Shown here: piece by piece, positions 5,756-33,009 of the stretch
Position numbering within the stretch: the first letter of the stretch is position 1
Layout: every line of letters starts with the position of its first letter
Assembly: GCA_049366715.1 (NCBI GenBank)
Contig: JBMNCQ010000004.1
Coordinates: 244,374-308,373 of the forward strand
Origin: Peptococcaceae bacterium
GTDB lineage: Bacteria; Bacillota; Peptococcia; Peptococcales; BICA1-8
DNA length: 64,000 bases
Reading direction: 5' to 3'
Translations under genes and position numbers: made by a program
The notes under the pieces: model-generated
What the model saw: only the letters and a program-made list of their open reading frames with translations
What the model was told of the DNA's origin: nothing
Databases searched by the model: none

Positions 5756-6487
5756 TCAGGTTGCATTCAAGACTTGATCTACAGGTATACCGGCCTTCTT
5801 TAACACATATGCTCCATACTCAAACTCTCCTACCGTTTCAGGATAATGGGCATCGCTATTGACAATAAAATTCACTCCGGAATTAGCTACTGCCAATACC
5901 TCCTTAATACCGGGAAATGTATGACCGGTATTTATCTCCAGGGCCGTATTCCTTTTCGCACAGGATTTAGCCAGCTCTGAAAAATCAATTTCCATCTTGA
6001 GCCCCGGATGAGTTATCGCAAGGACATCATATCTTCCCAGGGCATCCAGCAAAGTTTTAGTATTTATATTCTTTACTTTTTCCTTTAGTCCTTTATTGAT
6101 TTTAACAAGCTGATTCCCGATTACATAATTCCAGGCCGTACTTAAATCAGCGGGATAAACATAAGGATGCAGACCCACCAGCAAATAATCCAGTTCTTTA
6201 ATGATCTCCTTTCCGACATCTATTTTACCGTCTAAACTTACAATATCAGCTTCCGCACCAACCTTTTTTTTGATGTCGGGATATTCTTCATGGAGTCTCT
6301 TTAAATCTTCTTTAATCTGCAGATAAGTATTGCTGTCTTTAACGCCCGTGCCGATGTTACCAGGTCCATGGTCAGCTATACCGACCTCGAGAAGTCCCTT
6401 CAAATGAGCTGCCTCAACCATATCCTCAACCGTAGCTCTGCCATCACTATAGTTAGTATGCAGATGATAATCACCGAAAAAATGCAT
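5756..6487 (-). CDS. PHP-domain hydrolase
   Basis: DYHLHTNYSDG, IADHGP, NSDAHYP. Confidence 0.9.
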   Translation of the reverse strand: MHFFGDYHLHTNYSDGRATVEDMVEAAHLKGLLEVGIADHGPGNIGTGVKDSNTYLQIKEDLKRLHEEYPDIKKKVGAEADIVSLDGKIDVGKEIIKELDYLLVGLHPYVYPADLSTAWNYVIGNQLVKINKGLKEKVKNINTKTLLDALGRYDVLAITHPGLKMEIDFSELAKSCAKRNTALEINTGHTFPGIKEVLAVANSGVNFIVNSDAHYPETVGEFEYGAYVLKKAGIPVDQVLNAT

Positions 6488-6510: not shown

Positions 6511-6790
6511 ATTATCGTTCTCGGTTCTCAGTTATTTTTTGTGCCCTGTGCCCTGTAATCTGTGCCCTGTGCCCTGTAATCTGTACTCTGTGCCCTGTAA
6601 TCTGTGCCCTGTGCCCCTGTAATCTGTACTCTGTGCCCTGTAATCTGTGCCCTGTGCCCCTGTAATCTGTACTCTGTGCCCTGTACTCTGTGCCCTGTGC
6701 CCTGTGCCCTGTAATCTGTATCTGTGCCCTGTGCCCTGTAATCTGTATCTGTGCCCTGTACTCTGTGCCCTGTACTCTGTAATCTGTTGT
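6511..6790. repeat. Heptamer tandem array: about 35 units of CTGTGCC/CTGTAAT/CTGTACT preceded by 3 oppositely oriented units
   Basis: Units counted directly; two 8-nt and two 6-nt variant units. Confidence 0.97.
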
Positions 6791-6838
6791 TCAGTCATGC
6801 TTATCGTACCTCTTTTTATATTTTCTGCAAATATGCAC

Positions 6839-6866
6839 AAAAAAAACTGACCAAGTCAGTTTTTTT
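6839..6866. terminator. Bidirectional terminator-like hairpin
   Basis: A-tract CTGAC-caa-GTCAG T-tract downstream of the YcdX-like gene. Confidence 0.65.
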
Positions 6867-8082: not shown

Positions 8083-8880
8083 TTATTCCCCATACAGGAC
8101 GAGCTTTTCGATAATTTCTGCAACACCGTCATCATCATTTGTCCTGGTGACAATATCGGCCGCTTGTTTTAAAGGCTCCACCGCATTGCCCATAGCTACA
8201 CCACAACCGGCAAATTTTATCATATCTAAATCATTCATATTATCACCGATAGCAATTACCTGCTCCCGCGGAATATCTAATGATAAGGCTAACTCCTTTA
8301 AAGCATTACCCTTAGTTGCCACGGGATGGGATATCTCTAAAAAATGATCCTTTGATTTCGTAATATTGATGGTCTCCCCAAAATGCTCCTGCAAACTTGG
8401 GGAGAGCTGGTCCAAACGATTACTTTCCCCGATAATCAGGATCTTGGTAGGATCGCTATGTAAACCGGCAGGCAAGTGGATATAATTTACGGGAACCTTG
8501 ACAATAGCCGAATAATTAGTACCCCATTCCGTAGCCTTTTCCATATACAGTTCATCATTCAGATAGGCATTAATATGCAAACCTGCCGGTTTAGCAAAAT
8601 TTATTACTTCCCGGGCAGTTTCCAAGGGTAACGGCCGATGATAGACGGTCCGCCCGTCGGCATATCTCACCAGCGCCCCTTGATAAGTGATCAGGGGCAG
8701 GTCTAATTTTAGGTCCAGAGCATAGGGCAAGGCCGACCGGTACATTCTTCCCGTGGCAAAAGTCACCAGCGTCCCTTGGGCAATACTCTCCCGGATGGCA
8801 TTTTTCGCCCTCGTGGAGATAATCAGATCATTTCTTAATAAAGTATCATCTAAATCTATTGCAATAAGCTTGTATTCCAT
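8083..8880 (-). CDS. Cof-type HAD-IIB hydrolase
   Basis: IAIDLDDTLL, ATGR, KG, IGDNMNDLDMI, AMGNA. Confidence 0.93.
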   Translation of the reverse strand: MEYKLIAIDLDDTLLRNDLIISTRAKNAIRESIAQGTLVTFATGRMYRSALPYALDLKLDLPLITYQGALVRYADGRTVYHRPLPLETAREVINFAKPAGLHINAYLNDELYMEKATEWGTNYSAIVKVPVNYIHLPAGLHSDPTKILIIGESNRLDQLSPSLQEHFGETINITKSKDHFLEISHPVATKGNALKELALSLDIPREQVIAIGDNMNDLDMIKFAGCGVAMGNAVEPLKQAADIVTRTNDDDGVAEIIEKLVLYGE

Positions 8881-8920
8881 AAAATCCTCCTCTGAGCTTG
8901 TCCGTAAACCAGCTGCGCTG

Positions 8921-9265
8921 GTTTGGTTAGTGATTAGTGATTAGTGACTGGTGACTAGTGACTAGTGACTAGTGACTAGTCACTAGTAGTATGGTAAAGT
9001 TTATAGAGCATCGTTTATCGTTCATAGATAGAGTTCTCAGTTCTCAGATACCGGTTCTCAGTTAGTTAGTTAGTGAGTAGTAAAGTTTATAGAGCATCGT
9101 TTATCGTTCATAGATAGAGTTCTCAGTTCTTAGATACCGGTTCTCAGTTGGTTGGTTGGTTAGTTAGTGAGTAGTAAAGTTTATAGAGCATCGTTTATAG
9201 TGGATAGAACTAAGAACAGTTTTACACTGTAGCTACCTTACCTTTACCTCTACCTTCTGCTAAAG
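8921..9265. repeat. Composite heptamer array with an 86/94-bp higher-order tandem repeat
   Basis: (TGACTAG)n at 8924-8986, then super-unit GTAAAGTTTATAGAGCATCGTTTATCGTTCATAG…TTCTCAG starting at 8994, 9080 and 9174 (third partial). Confidence 0.95.
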
Positions 9266-9274
9266 TCGGTCTTT

Positions 9275-9616
9275 TTAGTCCGTTACCAGTGCATTTAATA
9301 TCGAGCTTATTAAAGAGAGAATTATTGCTCCGATTGTAGCGGCCCAAAAACCGTGGACATCAAAGCCGTTTACGACAGTACCGGTTATCTTGAGCATAAA
9401 TCCATTAATAATTAGGGTAAATAATCCTAAAGTAAGCAGGTTAATTGGTAGGGTCAGGAATATAATGACCGGTCTAATAATAGCGTTAACGATACCTAGG
9501 ACCAGCGCAGCAAATAAAGCCGCCAGTATCCCATGTACTGCTATTCCTCCGATGATAAAAGAAGTGAAAATTAATGCCGCACCATTCAAAATCCAGCGAA
9601 CAACCCAGCCCTTCAT
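9275..9616 (-). CDS. YvlD-like 4-TM membrane protein (phage holin family 4)
   Basis: NAIIRPVIIFLTLPINLLTLGLFTLIING signature; position next to uvr genes. Confidence 0.88.
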   Translation of the reverse strand: MKGWVVRWILNGAALIFTSFIIGGIAVHGILAALFAALVLGIVNAIIRPVIIFLTLPINLLTLGLFTLIINGFMLKITGTVVNGFDVHGFWAATIGAIILSLISSILNALVTD

Positions 9617-9731: not shown

Positions 9732-11597
9732 TTACTCCTTATTGTGTCTCGTCCGCAGCAGCAAATCCTGGTGAGAGTGCAGATAATCATGAACCGCCTC
9801 GGCAACTTTTCTATTTACGCCCTCTACTTGCAGCAACTCGTCGACGCTCGCCTCCTGGATCTTTTTAAAAGACCCGAAATGTTTCAGTAAATTAATCTTC
9901 CGCTTCTCCCCGATTCCCGGAATGTCATCAAGAATAGAAGCCAGATTTCTTTTACCCCGGAGACTACGATGATAAGTAATTGCAAACCTGTGGGCTTCAT
10001 CCCTGATCCGCTGTAATAGATATAAAGAAAGTGATGAACGGGGTAAAATAATGGGTTCCGGCTGATTTTCCGTAAAAAGCCACTCTTCCTTTTTCGCCAA
10101 ACCATAAGTAGGAATATAAGAGAAGCCTTGTTCCTGCATGGCCTGCCGGGCAGCTTGCAGCTGGCCTTTTCCTCCGTCAATTATGACCAGGTCCGGTAAA
10201 ACGGAGAATTTACTTGTCTTCCCGGGTTCAATTTTCTCTTCCCGGGCATTTCTAAATCTCCTGGTAATTACCTCATACATACTGGCAAAATCATTAGGAC
10301 CCTCGACTGTTTTTATTTTGAAACGGCGGTATTGATCCTTTTTTGAACGGCCTCCTTCAAAAACAACCATAGAAGCCACACTTTCCGTCCCTTGGGTATT
10401 GGAAATATCATAGCATTCAATTCTCAAAGGAGGTTTTAAAAGTTTAAGTTCAGCTTGCAGTTCCATGACAGCCCCTTCCGTCATGGCTTTTTTCTGCTGT
10501 TTTTCCAGTTCAACTTTTTCAACGGCCTCTAAAGCATTTTTCCCGACCAGTTCGATTAGTTCTTTCCTTTCGCCCCGCTTAGGGACCTTAAGGTATACCC
10601 TCCCCCCCCTTTTTACAGACAACCATTCTTCAATAACCTTTCCTTCAGAAAGATCGGCCTCAACAAGAATTTCACGGGGTATGAAATCCTGCTCCAGGTA
10701 GTATTGCTTGATAAAGGCCTCCAGGACCTCACTTCTTTCCAAATCATCTGTTCCTTTGAGAAAGAAGTTTTCCCTGCCTATTAATTTCCCTTTACGAATA
10801 AAAAATATCTGAACACAGGCTTCATCAAAACCTCGGGCCATTGCTATCACATCCTGATCCGCTGCTTCATTGGAAACGATCTTTTGTTTTTCAATGACCT
10901 GCCTGATTCCTTGAATCTGATCCCTAATTTGAGCTGCCCATTCAAACTCCAGGTTTAAAGCCGCCTTTTCCATCTCTTTTTCTAACGTAACCAGCAAATC
11001 TTCCTGTTTGCCTTCTAAAAATAAAATCACCTGTTTAATTATGTCATGATACTGTTCTTTCGTTATCTTACCTACACAGGGCGCGGCACATCTGTTAATA
11101 TGGTTATTTAAACAAGGTCTGTCATTGGTAAATACCGTCTGTTTACAGCTTCGGAAAGGAAAAATCCTTTTTAACAATTCCAAGGTTTCCCGCAGAATAG
11201 TCGCACTCGTATATGGTCCATAATATTTTGAACCGTCCTTATTGATTTTCCGCGTGACATAGACCCGGGGAAAATCTTCATTGGTTATTTTTATATAAGG
11301 ATACGTTTTATCATCCTTTAAGTTAATATTATATTTCGGACGGTATTCTTTAATTAGGTTGCATTCTAAAATCAGCGCCTCTAGTTCATTATCGGTAAGG
11401 ATATAATCAAGATCAGCAATATTTTTCACCAAAGCCCTGGTTTTGGCTGAATCATACTTTTTGCTTTGAAAATACGATTTCACCCTGTTTTTTAGAGATA
11501 TCGCTTTCCCTACATAAATAATTTCCTCCCCGGCATCTTTCATCAAATATACACCCGGTTTATTAGGCAAAGCCTGCAGTTTATCCTGAAGGGACAT
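9732..11597 (-). CDS. uvrC: Excinuclease ABC subunit C
   Basis: PGVYLM…IYVGKA…RVKSYF (GIY-YIG), RIECYDISN, IDGGKGQL, RDEAHRFAI, HhH. Confidence 0.98.
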   Translation of the reverse strand: MSLQDKLQALPNKPGVYLMKDAGEEIIYVGKAISLKNRVKSYFQSKKYDSAKTRALVKNIADLDYILTDNELEALILECNLIKEYRPKYNINLKDDKTYPYIKITNEDFPRVYVTRKINKDGSKYYGPYTSATILRETLELLKRIFPFRSCKQTVFTNDRPCLNNHINRCAAPCVGKITKEQYHDIIKQVILFLEGKQEDLLVTLEKEMEKAALNLEFEWAAQIRDQIQGIRQVIEKQKIVSNEAADQDVIAMARGFDEACVQIFFIRKGKLIGRENFFLKGTDDLERSEVLEAFIKQYYLEQDFIPREILVEADLSEGKVIEEWLSVKRGGRVYLKVPKRGERKELIELVGKNALEAVEKVELEKQQKKAMTEGAVMELQAELKLLKPPLRIECYDISNTQGTESVASMVVFEGGRSKKDQYRRFKIKTVEGPNDFASMYEVITRRFRNAREEKIEPGKTSKFSVLPDLVIIDGGKGQLQAARQAMQEQGFSYIPTYGLAKKEEWLFTENQPEPIILPRSSLSLYLLQRIRDEAHRFAITYHRSLRGKRNLASILDDIPGIGEKRKINLLKHFGSFKKIQEASVDELLQVEGVNRKVAEAVHDYLHSHQDLLLRTRHNKE

Positions 11598-23121: not shown

Positions 23122-24360
23122 CTACTTAAATATTTTGCCGAAAATCTTTTTAAAAATGCTTTCTCCCCTTTGCTCAAAATCTAAATAGGAATAACCATAT
23201 CCATCAGGGACAAGTATTAACCCCAGAGGTTTTCCGACAGTGGGTCTTTTAATTAACCTTCTCTTTAAAACTTTTTTCCTGCCTGCTAAAAACTCAATTT
23301 CAAAGGCATCACCTGCATGCTGCAGGGCGTAATCCAGGTCATAACTGCTATCGGCTCTGACACCGTTAACAGCCAGAATAATGTCACCTGTCCGCAGGCC
23401 GCCGGATTTTAAAGGGGACGATTCTAATAAGTCAAGAACCATCACGCCCCTGGGCGGGTTGGTAAACAAAGGTTCCCCTGAAAATTCATGCCTTCTCCCT
23501 AAAAAAATCACAAATTCATGTCCGCAAGGGGCAAAAAGCGCTGCGAAAATTCCCATAGCGGGATAGTTTGCCGCAATGATCGCCAATCCCAGTAATATTA
23601 AGCTGTAAACTGCTAAATACGATGCAGAGCGGCTTGTTTTCTCTTTCGGCAGGGCTGTTAGGGCGATGTCCCCATAACCCAGACCGGCAATTACAGGTAT
23701 CATCTGATAAATAATATTATTATTTTCATTTAAAAATTCCGCCTTAATAAGAGGCCACCAATCCGGCATTTTTAAAACTCCGCCGACAATCTCCACATCG
23801 GGAACAATAGCTACCATGGCTACAATGGGAAGCGGCCAGAATTTCTGCAGATTGAACCCGCCGATTAATTTATCATGCTTCCCTTTAACATAAACAGGAA
23901 CCGCACCCAAATGGCCGCTTAAAAGAATTAAGACCGCTTCAACCAAGTGCAGGATGGCCACTAAACCCATAACCTGGGGAATACTTACTTCCGGATATCC
24001 TAAAAAATATTTGGAAAGGGAAACGACCCCTCCTGCATAGGCAAAACACATAAATCTTTGATTGACCAGCATCATGGCAATAGCCAGGATCCATAAATAC
24101 TGAATGCCCACTTCTAATATGGAAATTCCAACCAGAACTAAAATAAAGCTTCCCACTAAACCGCCTATAATACCATAAATGGTAGCAATGATCGTAGGAC
24201 GTACTACACTTTCTTCAGGCACATTAAAAAACTCACTCTTCATTTTAGCCATTCGTCTGAACTGAAACCAGATGATTAACATCACCAGCCAAAATATCGG
24301 CTGACTGAAAAGGCTTATTAAATTATAGATAATTAAAGGAATGAGCTTAATAAAAACCAA
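23122..24360 (-). CDS. Multi-pass membrane protein with C-terminal PDZ domain (MinJ-like)
   Basis: RFMCFAYAGG, LHLVEA, GLRTGDIILAVNG (PDZ); lies after ctpA as minJ does in Bacillus. Confidence 0.8.
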   Translation of the reverse strand: MVFIKLIPLIIYNLISLFSQPIFWLVMLIIWFQFRRMAKMKSEFFNVPEESVVRPTIIATIYGIIGGLVGSFILVLVGISILEVGIQYLWILAIAMMLVNQRFMCFAYAGGVVSLSKYFLGYPEVSIPQVMGLVAILHLVEAVLILLSGHLGAVPVYVKGKHDKLIGGFNLQKFWPLPIVAMVAIVPDVEIVGGVLKMPDWWPLIKAEFLNENNNIIYQMIPVIAGLGYGDIALTALPKEKTSRSASYLAVYSLILLGLAIIAANYPAMGIFAALFAPCGHEFVIFLGRRHEFSGEPLFTNPPRGVMVLDLLESSPLKSGGLRTGDIILAVNGVRADSSYDLDYALQHAGDAFEIEFLAGRKKVLKRRLIKRPTVGKPLGLILVPDGYGYSYLDFEQRGESIFKKIFGKIFK

Positions 24361-24380
24361 TCGTGAAATACTCCTCTCGA

Positions 24381-24577
24381 ATTTAGTGACCGGTGGTTAG
24401 TGATTAGTGACTAGTGACTAGTGGTTAGTGACTAGTATAGTTGAGATCATGGAGCATAGAGCATAGATTATGGTTCATAGTTTATGGTTCATAGTTTATA
24501 GTTCATGGGTTATGGGTTTGAGAACTGAGAACCGAGAACTGAGAACTGAGAACTGAATACAGACAACTGAGAACAGC
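24381..24577. repeat. Bipolar heptamer array filling the ctpA-minJ spacer
   Basis: About 17 NNNNYRG units (TGACTAG, AGCATAG, TTCATAG, TTTATGG), then 8 CTGAGAA-type units. Confidence 0.95.
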
Positions 24578-25753
24578 TTACCGGATCTTCCCTTCCAGGA
24601 CATCTATGGCCTTTAACAGCTGGGTATCCGGCGGTATCTCCCGCTGGCCCGGGACATATTCCGGTAATTCAACCTCAATATCAGGTTCAATGCCTTTATG
24701 GTGAATATCATTTTTATTGGGAGTGAGATATTTGGCCGTGGTAAGCTTTAACCCCGCTCCTTCATCTAAGAAAAATATAGACTGGACAATTCCTTTACCG
24801 AAAGTCTTCGTCCCAATAAGGGTGCCTGCTCCGGTATCCTTAATCGCCCCGGCCAGAATTTCCGATGCACTTGCACTACCGCCATTGATTAAAGCCGCGA
24901 TGGGTACTTTAATATTATCGCCGGAAGCCTCTAAAGATTCAGTCTGGTCTTTATTATTTACAATGTGGACAATCGGTCCTTTCGGAATGAAATGCCGGGC
25001 GATATCTACAACAGTATGTAAATCCCCACCGGGATTATCCCTTAAATCAATAATTATTGCTTTAAAGCCCTGATCCTGAAGCTTCTTTAATTCTTCCGTA
25101 AGGGCTTCATCGGTATTACTGGCAAACATTAAAATTCTCAGATAAGCAATATCCGGGTTATCCTTTAATATTTCCCCCTCAACAGTGGGAACATTGATTA
25201 TTTCTCTGACAATCGTAAATTCTAAAAGCTTATCTTCTTCAGCCCTTTGGATACTGACATTTACTTCCGTCCCGGGCTCGCCCTTCATAATACCGACAGC
25301 CTCATCAATATCCATATCTTCAGTGGATCTGCCGTTTATTCCGGCAATTATATCACCGGATTTTATCCCGGCCTTAGCCCCTGGTGTCCCTTTTATCGGA
25401 GCAATAACTGTTATGTCCCCATCCCGCACGCCAACATAAATGCCGATTCCTCCAAAAGCCCCCTGAATATGGGACTGCAGCTCTTGAAATTTCTCAGCAT
25501 TCATATAAACGGAATACTCATCACCCAAGGAATTTACCATTCCTCCAATAGCGCCTTCGATAAGCTTGCTGTCATCAACGGGCCAGAGAAACTGTGATTT
25601 TACCAAGGTAGCAACGCGTACGAATTGCCCGATATTATCCCTATTTGTAATTAAAAAAATCCCAACTGCTGCCGTTACCGTAAAACTGATTAAAATTAGC
25701 AGAATCAAAAAACCTTTAAAAATCCTTTTTCCGTTATTCAAGCAGGCCACCAC
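24578..25753 (-). CDS. ctpA: C-terminal processing protease, S41 family
   Basis: PDZ GIGIYV, IIDLRDNPGG, SASASEI, GTKTFGKG. Confidence 0.95.
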   Translation of the reverse strand: MVACLNNGKRIFKGFLILLILISFTVTAAVGIFLITNRDNIGQFVRVATLVKSQFLWPVDDSKLIEGAIGGMVNSLGDEYSVYMNAEKFQELQSHIQGAFGGIGIYVGVRDGDITVIAPIKGTPGAKAGIKSGDIIAGINGRSTEDMDIDEAVGIMKGEPGTEVNVSIQRAEEDKLLEFTIVREIINVPTVEGEILKDNPDIAYLRILMFASNTDEALTEELKKLQDQGFKAIIIDLRDNPGGDLHTVVDIARHFIPKGPIVHIVNNKDQTESLEASGDNIKVPIAALINGGSASASEILAGAIKDTGAGTLIGTKTFGKGIVQSIFFLDEGAGLKLTTAKYLTPNKNDIHHKGIEPDIEVELPEYVPGQREIPPDTQLLKAIDVLEGKIR

Positions 25754-25759
25754 CTATAA

Positions 25760-25800
25760 ATTAGTGACTAGTGACTATCCAACTTTGCCACTAGTAATTA
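25760..25800. repeat. Short bipolar heptamer element upstream of ctpA
   Basis: TAGTGAC TAGTGAC … CACTAGTAA. Confidence 0.55.
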
Positions 25801-29044: not shown

Positions 29045-29863
29045 TTATCCCAATTCTTTTAGTGCTTGCTCAACCTGTTGGGCATTTGGGGCGGAACCGT
29101 GCCAGCCCGCTTGATTTTCCATAAAAGAAACGCCTTTGCCTTTTATTGTTTTGGCGATGATCATAGTGGGTCTGCCTTTAATCGTCTTAGCCGTATTTAG
29201 GGCCTCCTCTATTTGGGCAAAGCTGTGTCCGTCGATCTCCAGTACTTCCCAGCCAAATGCCCGCCATTTATCGGCCAGGGGCTCAGGAGACATAACCTGA
29301 GAAATAGGCCCGTCTATCTGCAGTCCATTATAATCCAGTATGCCCGTAAGGTTATCTAACTTATAATGAGCAGCCGACATGGCTGCCTCCCAGATTTGAC
29401 CTTCCTGGATTTCCCCGTCACCCAGCATTACATAAATCCGGTTGGCAGTTTGATCTAATTTAGCTGCCAAAGCCATACCTATGGAAGTAGAAAAGCCCGT
29501 CCCCAGGGAGCCCGTGGACATTTCCACTCCTTTCACCTTTTTCATATCAGGGTGACCTTGTAAAGAAGAATTAATTTTTCTTAAGGACAATAAATCTGTC
29601 CGGGGGAAAAAACCCTTTTCAGCCAAGGCAGCGTATAAAACCGGCGCTGCATGGCCCTTTGATAATACAAAGCGGTCTCTTTCCGGCCAGTGAGGATTCC
29701 GGGGATCTACCTTTAACTCTTTAAAATACAGATATGTAATAATATCTGCAGCAGACAGTGACCCTCCCGGATGGCCCGACCCTGCTGCTCCTGTCATTTT
29801 TACAATATGCTGCCTGATCACTTTAGCTTTCTCTTTAAGTAATGCCAAGCTTTTCTCATCCAT
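29045..29863 (-). CDS. Transketolase, N-terminal (TPP-binding) subunit
   Basis: SGHPGGSLS, RDRFVLSKGHA, LQGHP, GDGEIQEG. Confidence 0.96.
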   Translation of the reverse strand: MDEKSLALLKEKAKVIRQHIVKMTGAAGSGHPGGSLSAADIITYLYFKELKVDPRNPHWPERDRFVLSKGHAAPVLYAALAEKGFFPRTDLLSLRKINSSLQGHPDMKKVKGVEMSTGSLGTGFSTSIGMALAAKLDQTANRIYVMLGDGEIQEGQIWEAAMSAAHYKLDNLTGILDYNGLQIDGPISQVMSPEPLADKWRAFGWEVLEIDGHSFAQIEEALNTAKTIKGRPTMIIAKTIKGKGVSFMENQAGWHGSAPNAQQVEQALKELG

Positions 29864-29884: not shown

Positions 29885-29995
29885 ATTAGTGACTGGTGAC
29901 TTGTTGCTCGTTGAAAGTTCTTAGTTACTGGTTCATAGATTATCGTTTTTAGTTATTCATTATACCCTGCGCCTTATACTCCGTAATCGTGCCCA
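29885..29995. repeat. Bipolar heptamer array upstream of transketolase
   Basis: TAGTGAC TGGTGAC … TAGTTAC TGGTTCA TAGATTA TCGTTTT TAGTTAT, then CTGCGCC TTATACT CCGTAAT. Confidence 0.75.
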
Positions 29996-31703: not shown

Positions 31704-32802
31704 TCAATTTTGAGTTGCTTGTTGTTTTAAGTACCCTTGAATAAAGTCGTTAATATCACCGTCCATGACGGCATGAACATTGCCCTTTTCAACTCCTGTC
31801 CGATGATCCTTGACCATACTATAGGGATGAAATACATATGACCTGATTTGGCTGCCCCAGCCAATCTCCTGCTGTTCCCCTTTAATCTGAGCCAGTTGTT
31901 TTTCTTTTTCCTTGATCTGCAGTTCCAACAGCTTGGATTGGAGAATTTTCATAGCCGTAGCTCTATTGCTGATTTGCGACCTTTCATTTTGACATTGCAC
32001 TACCACACCGGTAGGAAGATGGGTAATCCTCACTGCCGAATCGGTTTTATTAACATGCTGTCCTCCTGCCCCTCCGGACCGGTAAGTATCAATTTTCAAA
32101 TCCTTGGGATCGATTTCCAATGTTGTCTCATCATTTACCTCCGGCATAACTTCAGCCGCAGCAAAGGAAGTATGTCTCCGCCCGGAAGCATCAAAGGGAG
32201 AAATCCTTACTAAGCGGTGGACACCTTTCTCGGCCTTAAGATAGCCAAAGGCATTCTCCCCCTCAATGGCTACGGTAACACTCTTCAGACCTGCTTCTTC
32301 CCCGGTAAGCATATCAAGGATCTCTACATGATACCCTTGACTTTCCGCCCAGCGGGTATACATACGGAATAACATTTCCGTCCAATCCTGAGATTCGGTC
32401 CCCCCGGCGCCCGGATGCAGGGTAAGAATAGCGCTGTTTTTATCATATTTTCCGCTAAGCAGGGTCTCTAGTTCCAGCTTCTCCAAATGCTTTGCTAAAA
32501 TTTTCAGCTCTGCAACGGTTTCAGTGGTTAAAGATTCATCTTCCCTGCTCAGCTCGTATAGAACCTCGATATCTTCCAGCTTAGCTTCCAGACTCGCAAA
32601 TTCTTCAACTTTATCTTTTAACTTATTCATTTTCTGCATCATTTGCTGGGCTTCTTCCGGATGATCCCAGAAGCCGGCAGCACCTGTTTCTTCTTCTAAT
32701 TCTGCTAATTTGTCCTTGCGGCCGGCAATGTCAAAGAGAATCCCTCAAATCCGCAATTTTCTTGGCCGCCATTTCAATATCCCGTTTCATTTCAAAATCC
32801 AC
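31704..32802 (-). CDS. prfB: Peptide chain release factor 2 (programmed +1 frameshift)
   Basis: SPF and GGQ motifs; upstream frame [23 protein letters not shown] ends at CTT TGA C. Confidence 0.97.
32730..32745 (-). other. prfB +1 frameshift signal
   Basis: AGGGAT TCT CTT TGA C: internal Shine-Dalgarno plus slippery site. Confidence 0.95.
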
Positions 32803-33009
32803 TGTTTTCAACTCCTATTCGGTTCGCAGTATTTTTGTACTCCGTACGTTAAAATCTGTACTCTGTTATTCGCTTTCTTCATTAACGGTTCCTTTATATT
32901 TCTCTCCCACTCTCTTTTTACTATTCCCGTAATCTTAATCTACCCGACCAACTAAGCTTTACCCGCAAATCTACCTTTACCTGACATTTTTTTGCTACCC
33001 CAAAATGTA

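Follow-up and report, generated by a model that had tools for sequence, protein, structure and literature searches.

What kind of element is a tract of 7-nt repeats that occupies the space between two genes, changes its repeat unit on the way and reverses its polarity at one point? The question is raised by a locus in the stretch of 64,000 nucleotides analyzed here (the window), taken from a Peptococcaceae-like member of the Bacillota whose genome comprises 4.15 Mb in 108 contigs, has a G+C content of 41.7%, and is represented by an assembly that is 85% complete. The locus is the spacer between a ctpA-like gene and its downstream neighbor (Table 1), and it measures 217 bp from the ctpA-like stop to the ribosome-binding site side of the next gene. 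The heptamers fill it entirely, since the last D-type unit ends 4 nt from the TAA stop and the array at the other end stops 8 nt short of the Shine-Dalgarno sequence of the downstream gene (GAGAGGAG, at 24371-24378), which is kept in relatives. The closest relatives of the ctpA product come from metagenome-assembled Bacillota titled Peptococcaceae, Clostridia or Clostridiaceae, with 69-77% identity, and scans of genomes and metagenomes with this protein returned only relatives at 38-77% identity.

Table 1. Features of the focal tract, its flanking genes, and the other heptamer loci of the window (positions are those of the window).
Feature	Coordinates	Strand	Description and basis
B array	24387..24435	+	7 units TGAYYRG; sequence reading and TRF
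Linker TATAGTTGAG	24436..24445	none	10 nt, non-periodic; 7-nt frame broken between B and C
C array	24446..24515	+	10 units NNYATRG (ATCATGG, AGCATAG twice, ATTATGG, TTCATAG, TTTATGG, ...); sequence reading and TRF
D-type array	24518..24573	-	8 units; sequence reading and TRF
Upstream gene	24578..25753	-	S41 peptidase with PDZ and CtpB_N-like domains (CtpA/CtpB-like); TAA stop at 24578-24580
Downstream gene	23122..24360	-	412-aa protein with weak, sub-threshold PDZ matches; domain search
Second two-arm locus	6516..6787	none	TTCTCGG TTCTCAG, then about 35 units CTGTGCC/CTGTAAT/CTGTACT (A type, inverted)
One-polarity composite	8921..9230	+	B array at 8928-8987, then an 86-bp higher-order unit repeated 2.3 times (8994-9198)
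Short B array	25762..25777	+	2.3 units, directly 5' of the ctpA-like start
Decayed B, then C/D-like units	29885..29960	+	single polarity; sequence reading
Short two-arm trace	32812..32870	none	TTCGG TTCGCAG, then CTGTACT-type units; directly 5' of the prfB start region

An earlier sequence-only reading of the tract had described it as 7 + 10 + 8 heptamers, all of which were found again in the sequence and by TRF, and the head-to-tail period of 7 nt was confirmed by TRF together with lag-identity scans. The B units follow in the order TGACCGG, TGGTTAG, TGATTAG, TGACTAG (twice), TGGTTAG and TGACTAG, and read CYARTCA on the gene-sense (minus) strand. Polarity inverts at the dinucleotide GT (24516-24517), the sole 2-nt gap, beyond which the D-type units read, on the plus strand, TTGAGAA, CTGAGAA, CCGAGAA, CTGAGAA (twice), CTGAATA, CAGACAA and CTGAGAA; here CTGAGAA corresponds to TTCTCAG, that is N4YRG, on the gene-sense strand. 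All 17 units to the left end in YRG, and 6 of the 8 to the right start with CYR. The two arms are built from different unit families and are complementary at about 5 of 7 positions; the predicted fold of the sense strand has a free energy of -39.6 kcal/mol with a z-score of about -2 (-1.95), and the antisense strand scores from -3.06 to -4.3. No ORF of the PF05635 family (small four-helix-bundle proteins, named "23S rRNA intervening-sequence protein" in Pfam) lies between the arms, which leave only those 2 nt, so that the suggestion of a cargo gene inserted at the inversion point fails at this locus.

The window contains no Rfam match at gathering scores, and a known RNA family was accordingly rejected as the identity of the tract. 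On the sense strand, neither promoter-like nor terminator-like sites occur in 24300-24650 or in 8850-9300, and the four promoter-like matches in the first interval are all antisense. A promoter or terminator role of the arrays was rejected on this basis, for the two spacers scanned, and the same lack of sites on the gene-sense strand suggests that the ctpA spacer is probably co-transcribed with both flanking genes.

The focal tract is one of several in the window. The two-arm locus at 6516..6787 lies upstream of a PHP-domain gene (5756..6487, minus strand), the composite at 8921..9230 upstream of a HAD hydrolase gene (8083..8880, minus strand), and the decayed trace at 29885..29960 upstream of a gene for a transketolase N-terminal subunit (29045..29863, minus strand). 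The 86-bp higher-order unit of the composite consists of linker, C and D modules, and eight other places match it over at least 50 nt with 86-92% identity. The claim that all such tracts lie just upstream of a gene start is borne out, as each of the eight sites named lies within about 45 nt of a minus-strand start; the claim that five of them have the polarity of the focal tract is correct in part, both arms being present at 6511 and 32818 and only the N4YRG part at 8921, 25760 and 29885. The genes downstream of the arrays in the window (those for a ctpA-like peptidase, uvrB, a transketolase subunit, a HAD hydrolase, prfB and a PHP-domain protein) have no common functional theme. Two details of annotation may be added. 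A 102-aa ORF at 6532-6840 (minus strand) runs through the CTGTGCC/CTGTAAT array and is most likely spurious, because A-type units are free of stops on both strands. The prfB gene (RF-2; 31704-32642, minus strand, and upstream to about 32810) appears as a 312-aa ORF without its N-terminus, as expected from the programmed +1 frameshift, and a short repeat trace is found directly 5' of the first prfB start.

Arrays were counted over the whole genome with a lag-identity scan, against crude ORF calls that cover 84% of it. Period 7 stands out as the one non-coding tandem class, with 188 arrays at 103 loci, 92 of which are intergenic, and other periods (2-6, 8 and 10-13) for 1-26 arrays each, the 137 arrays of period 14 being a harmonic. 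Period 9 also yields 188 arrays, but 172 of them are coding and 166 lie on three contigs, and they were rejected as a related class; on contigs C37, C65 and C10 their units look like Gly-X-Y (collagen-like) coding repeats. The number and the length of the heptamer arrays are underestimated because arrays break the assembly: of 216 contig ends, 10 are no more than 60 nt away from one, and one array (C16:43864-44165) contains an N gap. Annotators should be aware that heptamer tracts break assemblies and can create false ORFs.

Four unit families recur, namely B (TGAYYRG), C (NNYATRG), D (TTCTCAG) and A (NNNACAG), with a common Y-R-G end. They usually follow one another as B, then C, then D or A, with non-periodic linkers in common, and B followed by C is the commonest junction (n = 36). 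The D-type unit of the focal tract and the in-phase A unit AGAACAG are one base apart: when inverted, D reads AGAACTG, and the two are mixed in phase within arrays. Of the 34 B arrays, 25 face a gene start, which lies at a median distance of 23 nt; for C arrays the count is 40 of 55.

From the focal tract a hidden grammar had been proposed, (N4YRG)n followed by (CYRN4)n, in which YRG would be nearly invariant while the other four bases vary, and from it the argument that slippage would not preserve such a triplet frame. Among 99 phased arrays (89 of the 188 were left out as short, N-containing or not phasing), the mismatch rates per unit position are 0.115, 0.123, 0.154 and 0.095 over N4 and 0.101, 0.121 and 0.103 over YRG. 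By identity the triplet is hence kept no better than its surroundings, and the claim is right only as regards transversions, whose rates of 0.017 at Y and 0.018 at G fall below the 0.038-0.072 measured over the four variable positions. The notation, in which two of the positions are given as transition classes, accounts for much of the apparent invariance, and the argument against slippage is weak because YRG varies within arrays as much as the other positions do. The register itself fared better as a trait common to different unit families: an unsupervised alignment of rotation and strand over 30 unit types recovered Y in 29, R in 25 and G in all 30, with a register information of 5.45 bits against 4.36 ± 0.20 in 200 shuffles, none of which reached that value, although this comparison overstates the evidence, since the unit types are mutational neighbors and not independent. 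The number of unit types that can be phased as N4YRG (26 of 37, against 17.4 ± 2.6 in shuffles and a maximum of 27 among 2000) says little, because with other degenerate triplets the count rises to as many as 35.

As to polarity, 127 of the 143 module junctions are co-directional, 13 are convergent and 3 divergent, from which it follows that most arrays are not arm pairs. Where runs of at least four N4YRG units, scored without reference to modules, flip within 120 nt, they do so convergently in 11 cases and divergently in 1. Co-directional spacers, read on the sense strand, have their N4YRG runs toward the upstream stop (n = 47, at a median position of 0.27) and their CYRN4 runs toward the downstream start (n = 73, at 0.62), a difference with p = 3.5e-6 in a Mann-Whitney test. 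Arm order across the genome is therefore non-random, and the grammar stands as a tendency, with the inverted arm confined to a minority of junctions. On their sense strands, the 13 gene-less convergent junctions are predicted to fold no better than shuffles (mean z -0.25), the focal one being the best of them, and a hairpin was rejected as a general property of such junctions.

Much of this would be expected if the tracts were ordinary heptanucleotide SSRs of the LSSR or STRR type, produced by polymerase slippage in tolerant intergenic DNA and without a causal tie to PF05635, whose cassettes (described below) would sit in or borrow existing arrays, the polarity reflecting an asymmetry of replication or transcription between strands. 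In many prokaryotes, long SSRs are most often heptamers (Mrazek 2007, via the available text of PMC4679880); all seven positions vary about equally within arrays, copy number differs among loci, contig ends fall in arrays, and most arrays are unpaired. Furthermore, the trinucleotide CTR lies on the G-rich strand in 25 of 30 B arrays and 38 of 52 C arrays, which equals the gene-strand bias (2781 of 3364), and a replication effect is inseparable from it. We nevertheless consider this explanation somewhat unlikely, as it does not account for the fixed order in which four unit families recur at many loci, joined by conserved non-periodic linkers, for the persistence of the B family and of its position next to ribosome-binding sites across genera at about 75% protein identity, or for flips that are 11:1 convergent.

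The opposite strand of YAG reads CTA or CTG, which are the DnaG initiation trinucleotides, and the CTR preference of the B and C arrays for the G-rich (leading-sequence) strand could accordingly mean that the tracts are runs of primase start sites and grow by primer realignment on the lagging-strand template. This is extremely improbable, given that A (13 of 32) and D (7 of 13) arrays do not follow the bias, that the bias equals that of the genes, and that convergent flips and cassette arms are left unexplained; a polarity linked to primase or replication was rejected for the first two of these reasons.

Periodic triplets next to gene starts also recall RNA sites that are read by multimeric proteins. 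TRAP sites are (G/U)AG triplets 2-3 nt apart, and the focal tract, with a spacing of 4 nt throughout, does not conform to them. HutP, on the other hand, reads XAG triplets 4 nt apart, i.e., in a 7-nt register (PMC2425495, from the part available), and B arrays in the sense RNA are repeats of UAG-N4 with exactly that site spacing. The arrays might thus be cis-acting RNA tracts, read by a ring-shaped or multimeric protein with a 7-nt register (HutP-like, XAG-N4, or other) that would set translation or anti-termination of the downstream gene; the median distance from the end of a B array to the start is 23 nt, a single HutP-family gene (119.5 bits) is present in the genome, and TAACTGA heptamers 5' of start codons have been proposed as such sites (PMC4679880, in its available text). 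We regard this as very unlikely. Matches to HutP are found in 35 of the 41 genomes of the order, array-free families among them (6 of 6 genomes in family f2), and are missing in the array-bearing G004; as reader of the arrays HutP was rejected for this distribution, which does not track them. The two scanned spacers lack a terminator-like stem, the genes that follow the arrays are housekeeping genes with no relation to one another, both copy number and unit are free to vary, and the orthologous spacers examined are array-free in three relatives. The spacing of the focal tract fits a HutP site, but no terminator-like site accompanies it and its flanks are the ctpA-like gene and the gene with weak PDZ matches. 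While HutP and TRAP sites share periodic NAG triplets with the arrays, they comprise 3+3 or 11 triplets in one operon with a terminator (HutP: PMC2425495, available part), whereas here there are hundreds of units in about 100 unrelated spacers. The HutP-family gene, single in the genome, lies at G000:C57:148271-148660 (L006 1453-1905); its neighbors, with translations read by eye, encode a membrane protein like the beta subunit of Na+-pump decarboxylases and a malonate decarboxylase alpha-like protein, and do not look like hut genes.

It had been suggested that an ORF might recur between the two arms, with small four-helix-bundle proteins as the candidate. In this genome the gaps at convergent junctions are 4-78 nt, and the single wider convergent pair with an ORF holds a ThiF/MoeB-like protein (by eye), so that cargo between arms was rejected here; the candidate proved apt in relatives, in which PF05635 genes do lie between such arms (in G005 and G007), and in this genome as a truncated relic, but not at the focal locus. 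The genome has five PF05635 matches at three loci (C5, C29 and C92 only), all broken. At the site between atpG and atpD (ATP synthase gamma and beta), a PF05635 gene lies within B-type arms in both G005 (L045) and G007 (L048), and the genome studied here has at the same site (C29:15846-16321) a truncated relic of 83 aa, flanked in its own sense by TTGCTAG TTACTGG TTACTGG TGACTAG upstream and (CTAGTCA)n downstream. The inverted-arm scores of the three loci (22, 18 and 18.5 for G005, G007 and C29) compare with shuffle maxima of 13, 11 and 10.5. The arm unit shifts on both sides together, from TGACTAG/CTAGTCA in G005 to TGGCTAG/CTAGCCA in G007, and in the predicted sense RNA of L045 the ORF is closed by paired arms in both MFE and centroid structures (z -4.1). 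A cassette polarity, with the N4YRG arm first and the CYRN4 arm second, next to the following ribosome-binding site, is found alike at the focal locus, L045, L048 and C29.

A further cassette of G007 has interrupted a gene for a structured RNA. Locus L058 (G007:C39:214949-218266) holds a full-length RNase P RNA of class A (RF00010, 274.7 bits) that is interrupted at model position 136/137 by an insert of about 410 nt (at about 1460-1870), located in a hairpin loop and made of heptamer arms (AGGTYAG/CTGAYTT) and an intact PF05635 ORF. Because this cassette interrupts a full-length RNase P RNA, the cassettes appear to behave as intervening sequences. Directly downstream of this rnpB lies a match to group II intron D1-D4 (RF02003, 87 bits).

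Of 16 PF05635 loci in the family, 7 are flanked by inverted arms whose ungapped score exceeds every shuffle, and 9 are not. In a sample from the phylum (20 top-scoring PF05635 loci, one per genome, with 60 shuffles each and the same ungapped arm score), 14 of 20 have inverted arms above all shuffles and 6 are without; the period is 7 in 13 of the 14. The upstream arm of these 13 cassettes, judged by eye, reads N4YRG in 8 and N4RAG in 2, is ambiguous in 3 and never shows the opposite polarity, and this single polarity in 8 of 8 readable cases speaks against slippage alone.

The gene-less arrays, too, are a trait of the lineage. All 8 other genomes of the family contain (YAG-N4)x5 arrays, which the other families of the order lack almost entirely; G005, G007 and G008 have 289, 164 and 265 matches, against 61, 15 and 143 for the reversed control. 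B-type arrays again adjoin ribosome-binding sites in the sampled relatives, and their units are shifted (e.g., TGGCTAG, TTGCTAG); sampling was centered on matches in G005 and G008 but not in G007. Two orthologous spacers (the ctpA and the holin-HAD spacer) hold arrays of other units and periods in one sister genus, and no arrays in G003 and G007 (both spacers) or in G004 (the holin-HAD spacer only, since a contig end truncates the other match), the latter absences being in favor of slippage. In the sister genus, these spacers (L002, L003; L037) contain (AAGGTT)n hexamers, CTGTAGCA octamers and the inverted motif TCGCTTCGCTAG / CTAGCGAAGCG, and the hexamers and octamers indicate that the period is not fixed at 7 across the family. 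The orthologous ctpA spacer carries there an ORF-less hairpin element (L002, L003; z -3.9), whose motifs are those that flank PF05635 genes elsewhere in the same genomes (L055, L057).

Across the phylum, (YAG-N4)x6 arrays were found in 81 of 401 genomes, 18 of them with at least 20 matches, and the units differ widely; the pattern sees YAG-phased arrays only, and other registers exist, since the reversed-pattern control is high in some genomes (e.g., 0 vs 110 in G101). A PF05635 match is present in 35 of 81 array-positive and 40 of 320 array-negative genomes, and in 16 of the 18 genomes with at least 20 array matches against 59 of the 383 others, all counted with kinship ignored. The presence of PF05635 in 16 of 18 array-heavy genomes is again not what slippage would predict; 46 of the 81 array-positive genomes, including 2 of the 18 array-heavy ones, have no PF05635 match.

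From these observations we infer that the gene-less arrays derive from PF05635 cassettes, or serve them; descent may also have run the other way, with cassettes settling in arrays. The focal tract would then be a gene-less member of a lineage-wide heptamer system that belongs with IVS-type PF05635 cassettes, a proposition to which we give even chances, and more specifically it is probably an ORF-less, slippage-expanded relative of these cassettes, in an empty or a leftover form. In its favor, the gene-less arrays of this genome keep the cassette polarity, and B arrays abut the next start (25/34, median 23 nt) as the downstream arm of a cassette does. Against it, the assembly, 85% complete, has 103 array loci but no more than three PF05635 loci, none of them intact; the PF05635 loci scored without significant inverted arms and the genomes that have arrays or PF05635 but not both also count against it; most arrays are unpaired, the focal arms belong to different families, and the 13 gene-less convergent junctions are predicted to fold no better than shuffled sequence.

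On a host transcript, an intact cassette would comprise a (N4YRG)n arm, its own ribosome-binding site, the PF05635 ORF, and a (CYRN4)n arm that abuts the ribosome-binding site of the next gene. The paired arms would form a stem of about 30 bp from which the insert is looped out, and RNase III would cut this stem, by analogy with the intervening sequences of rRNA. The arrays would grow, shrink and diversify through slipped-strand mispairing and would outlast the ORF. Accordingly placed on the sense strand of the focal tract, TTCTCAG after the ctpA stop, followed by CYATRAA and CTAGTCA up to the Shine-Dalgarno sequence, would represent the retained polarity, and the tract would now most likely be a co-transcribed spacer with a weak hairpin at most.

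Several known systems resemble the one described here. Heptameric STRR repeats of cyanobacteria were reportedly described by Mazel in 1990. As in STRR and LSSR heptamers (Mrazek 2007, via PMC4679880 and PMC4692102, each in its available text), the repeats are tandem, of 7 nt, intergenic, numerous and lineage-specific; unlike the cyanobacterial STRR they reside in Bacillota, and for STRR/LSSR the available text of the same two papers describes neither a modular order, nor a polarity relative to genes, nor a link to a gene family. In Xanthomonas campestris and X. axonopodis, GGGAATC heptamers form convergent array pairs, with 70 and 75 cases (Rehm et al. 2015, PMC4692102, available portion). Those arrays share with ours the intergenic location, the frequent convergent pairing, and a repeat type that is kept between species while its length varies, yet they have one G-rich, quadruplex-prone unit in both arms, instead of four AT-rich families in fixed order and mostly one polarity; neither S23p nor four-helix proteins are mentioned in the available text of that paper. 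The direct repeats TAACTGA of marine Beggiatoaceae and of some Cyanobacteria and Bacteroidetes (MacGregor 2015, PMC4679880, available text) are likewise heptamers of one orientation, located a few nucleotides 5' of unrelated start codons, housekeeping genes included, with a patchy phylogenetic spread. Unlike the arrays reported here, in which several families are chained and followed by a normal Shine-Dalgarno sequence, they consist of a single unit in 2-6 copies that overlaps the expected ribosome-binding site.

The closest precedent is the intervening sequence in the 23S rRNA gene of Coxiella burnetii, in which tandem GACAGAT heptamers, variable in number among strains, lie upstream of the S23p ORF. 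That element has a terminal stem of 28 bp, and RNase III excises it (Warrier et al. 2016, PMC4990558, in the part available). Both systems have a four-helix-bundle ORF within stem-forming terminal inverted repeats, both show the ORF decaying while the RNA element stays, and the Coxiella heptamer can be phased as ATGA-CAG. Unlike that element, as far as the available text describes it, those studied here occupy spacers of mRNA and, in one relative, RNase P RNA, but not 23S rRNA, their whole arms are heptamer arrays, and the focal locus is ORF-less with unmatched arms. In the literature outside subscription journals we found no general description that links PF05635 to heptamer arrays, Coxiella being a single-organism precedent.

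To our knowledge, the PF05635 "intervening-sequence proteins" have remained without a known function for some 30 years, and for the intergenic heptamer arrays of bacteria, noted since 1990, we know of no mechanism. A bolder and, in our judgment, unlikely idea would join the two: the YRG-phased heptamer may be the recognition unit of the PF05635 protein, with arms cognate to the protein of their own cassette, which would spread, maintain or process such arms both in cis and in trans, and the roughly 100 gene-less arrays would be its footprint. A member of the PF05635 family is reportedly a homopentameric ring (Lin 2006, as cited in the available text of PMC4990558). Were the idea correct, it would explain the dominance of 7-nt repeats among bacterial intergenic satellites and give a function to the PF05635 family. 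The Bacillota family studied here makes the link between PF05635 and heptamers testable, because three states coexist in it side by side: intact cassettes (one of them in RNase P RNA), a decaying cassette, and about 100 ORF-less arrays of one polarity.

One more site of this genome deserves a brief description. Two PF05635 fragments bracket an LCP-like gene, C92:9507-9626 upstream and C92:10832-10987 downstream; the first occupies the position of intact PF05635 genes in G005, G007 and G008 (L050, L053, L054), and hexamer-like inverted arms, AGGTAA / TTACCT, are found near 10640-10760 of the same contig.
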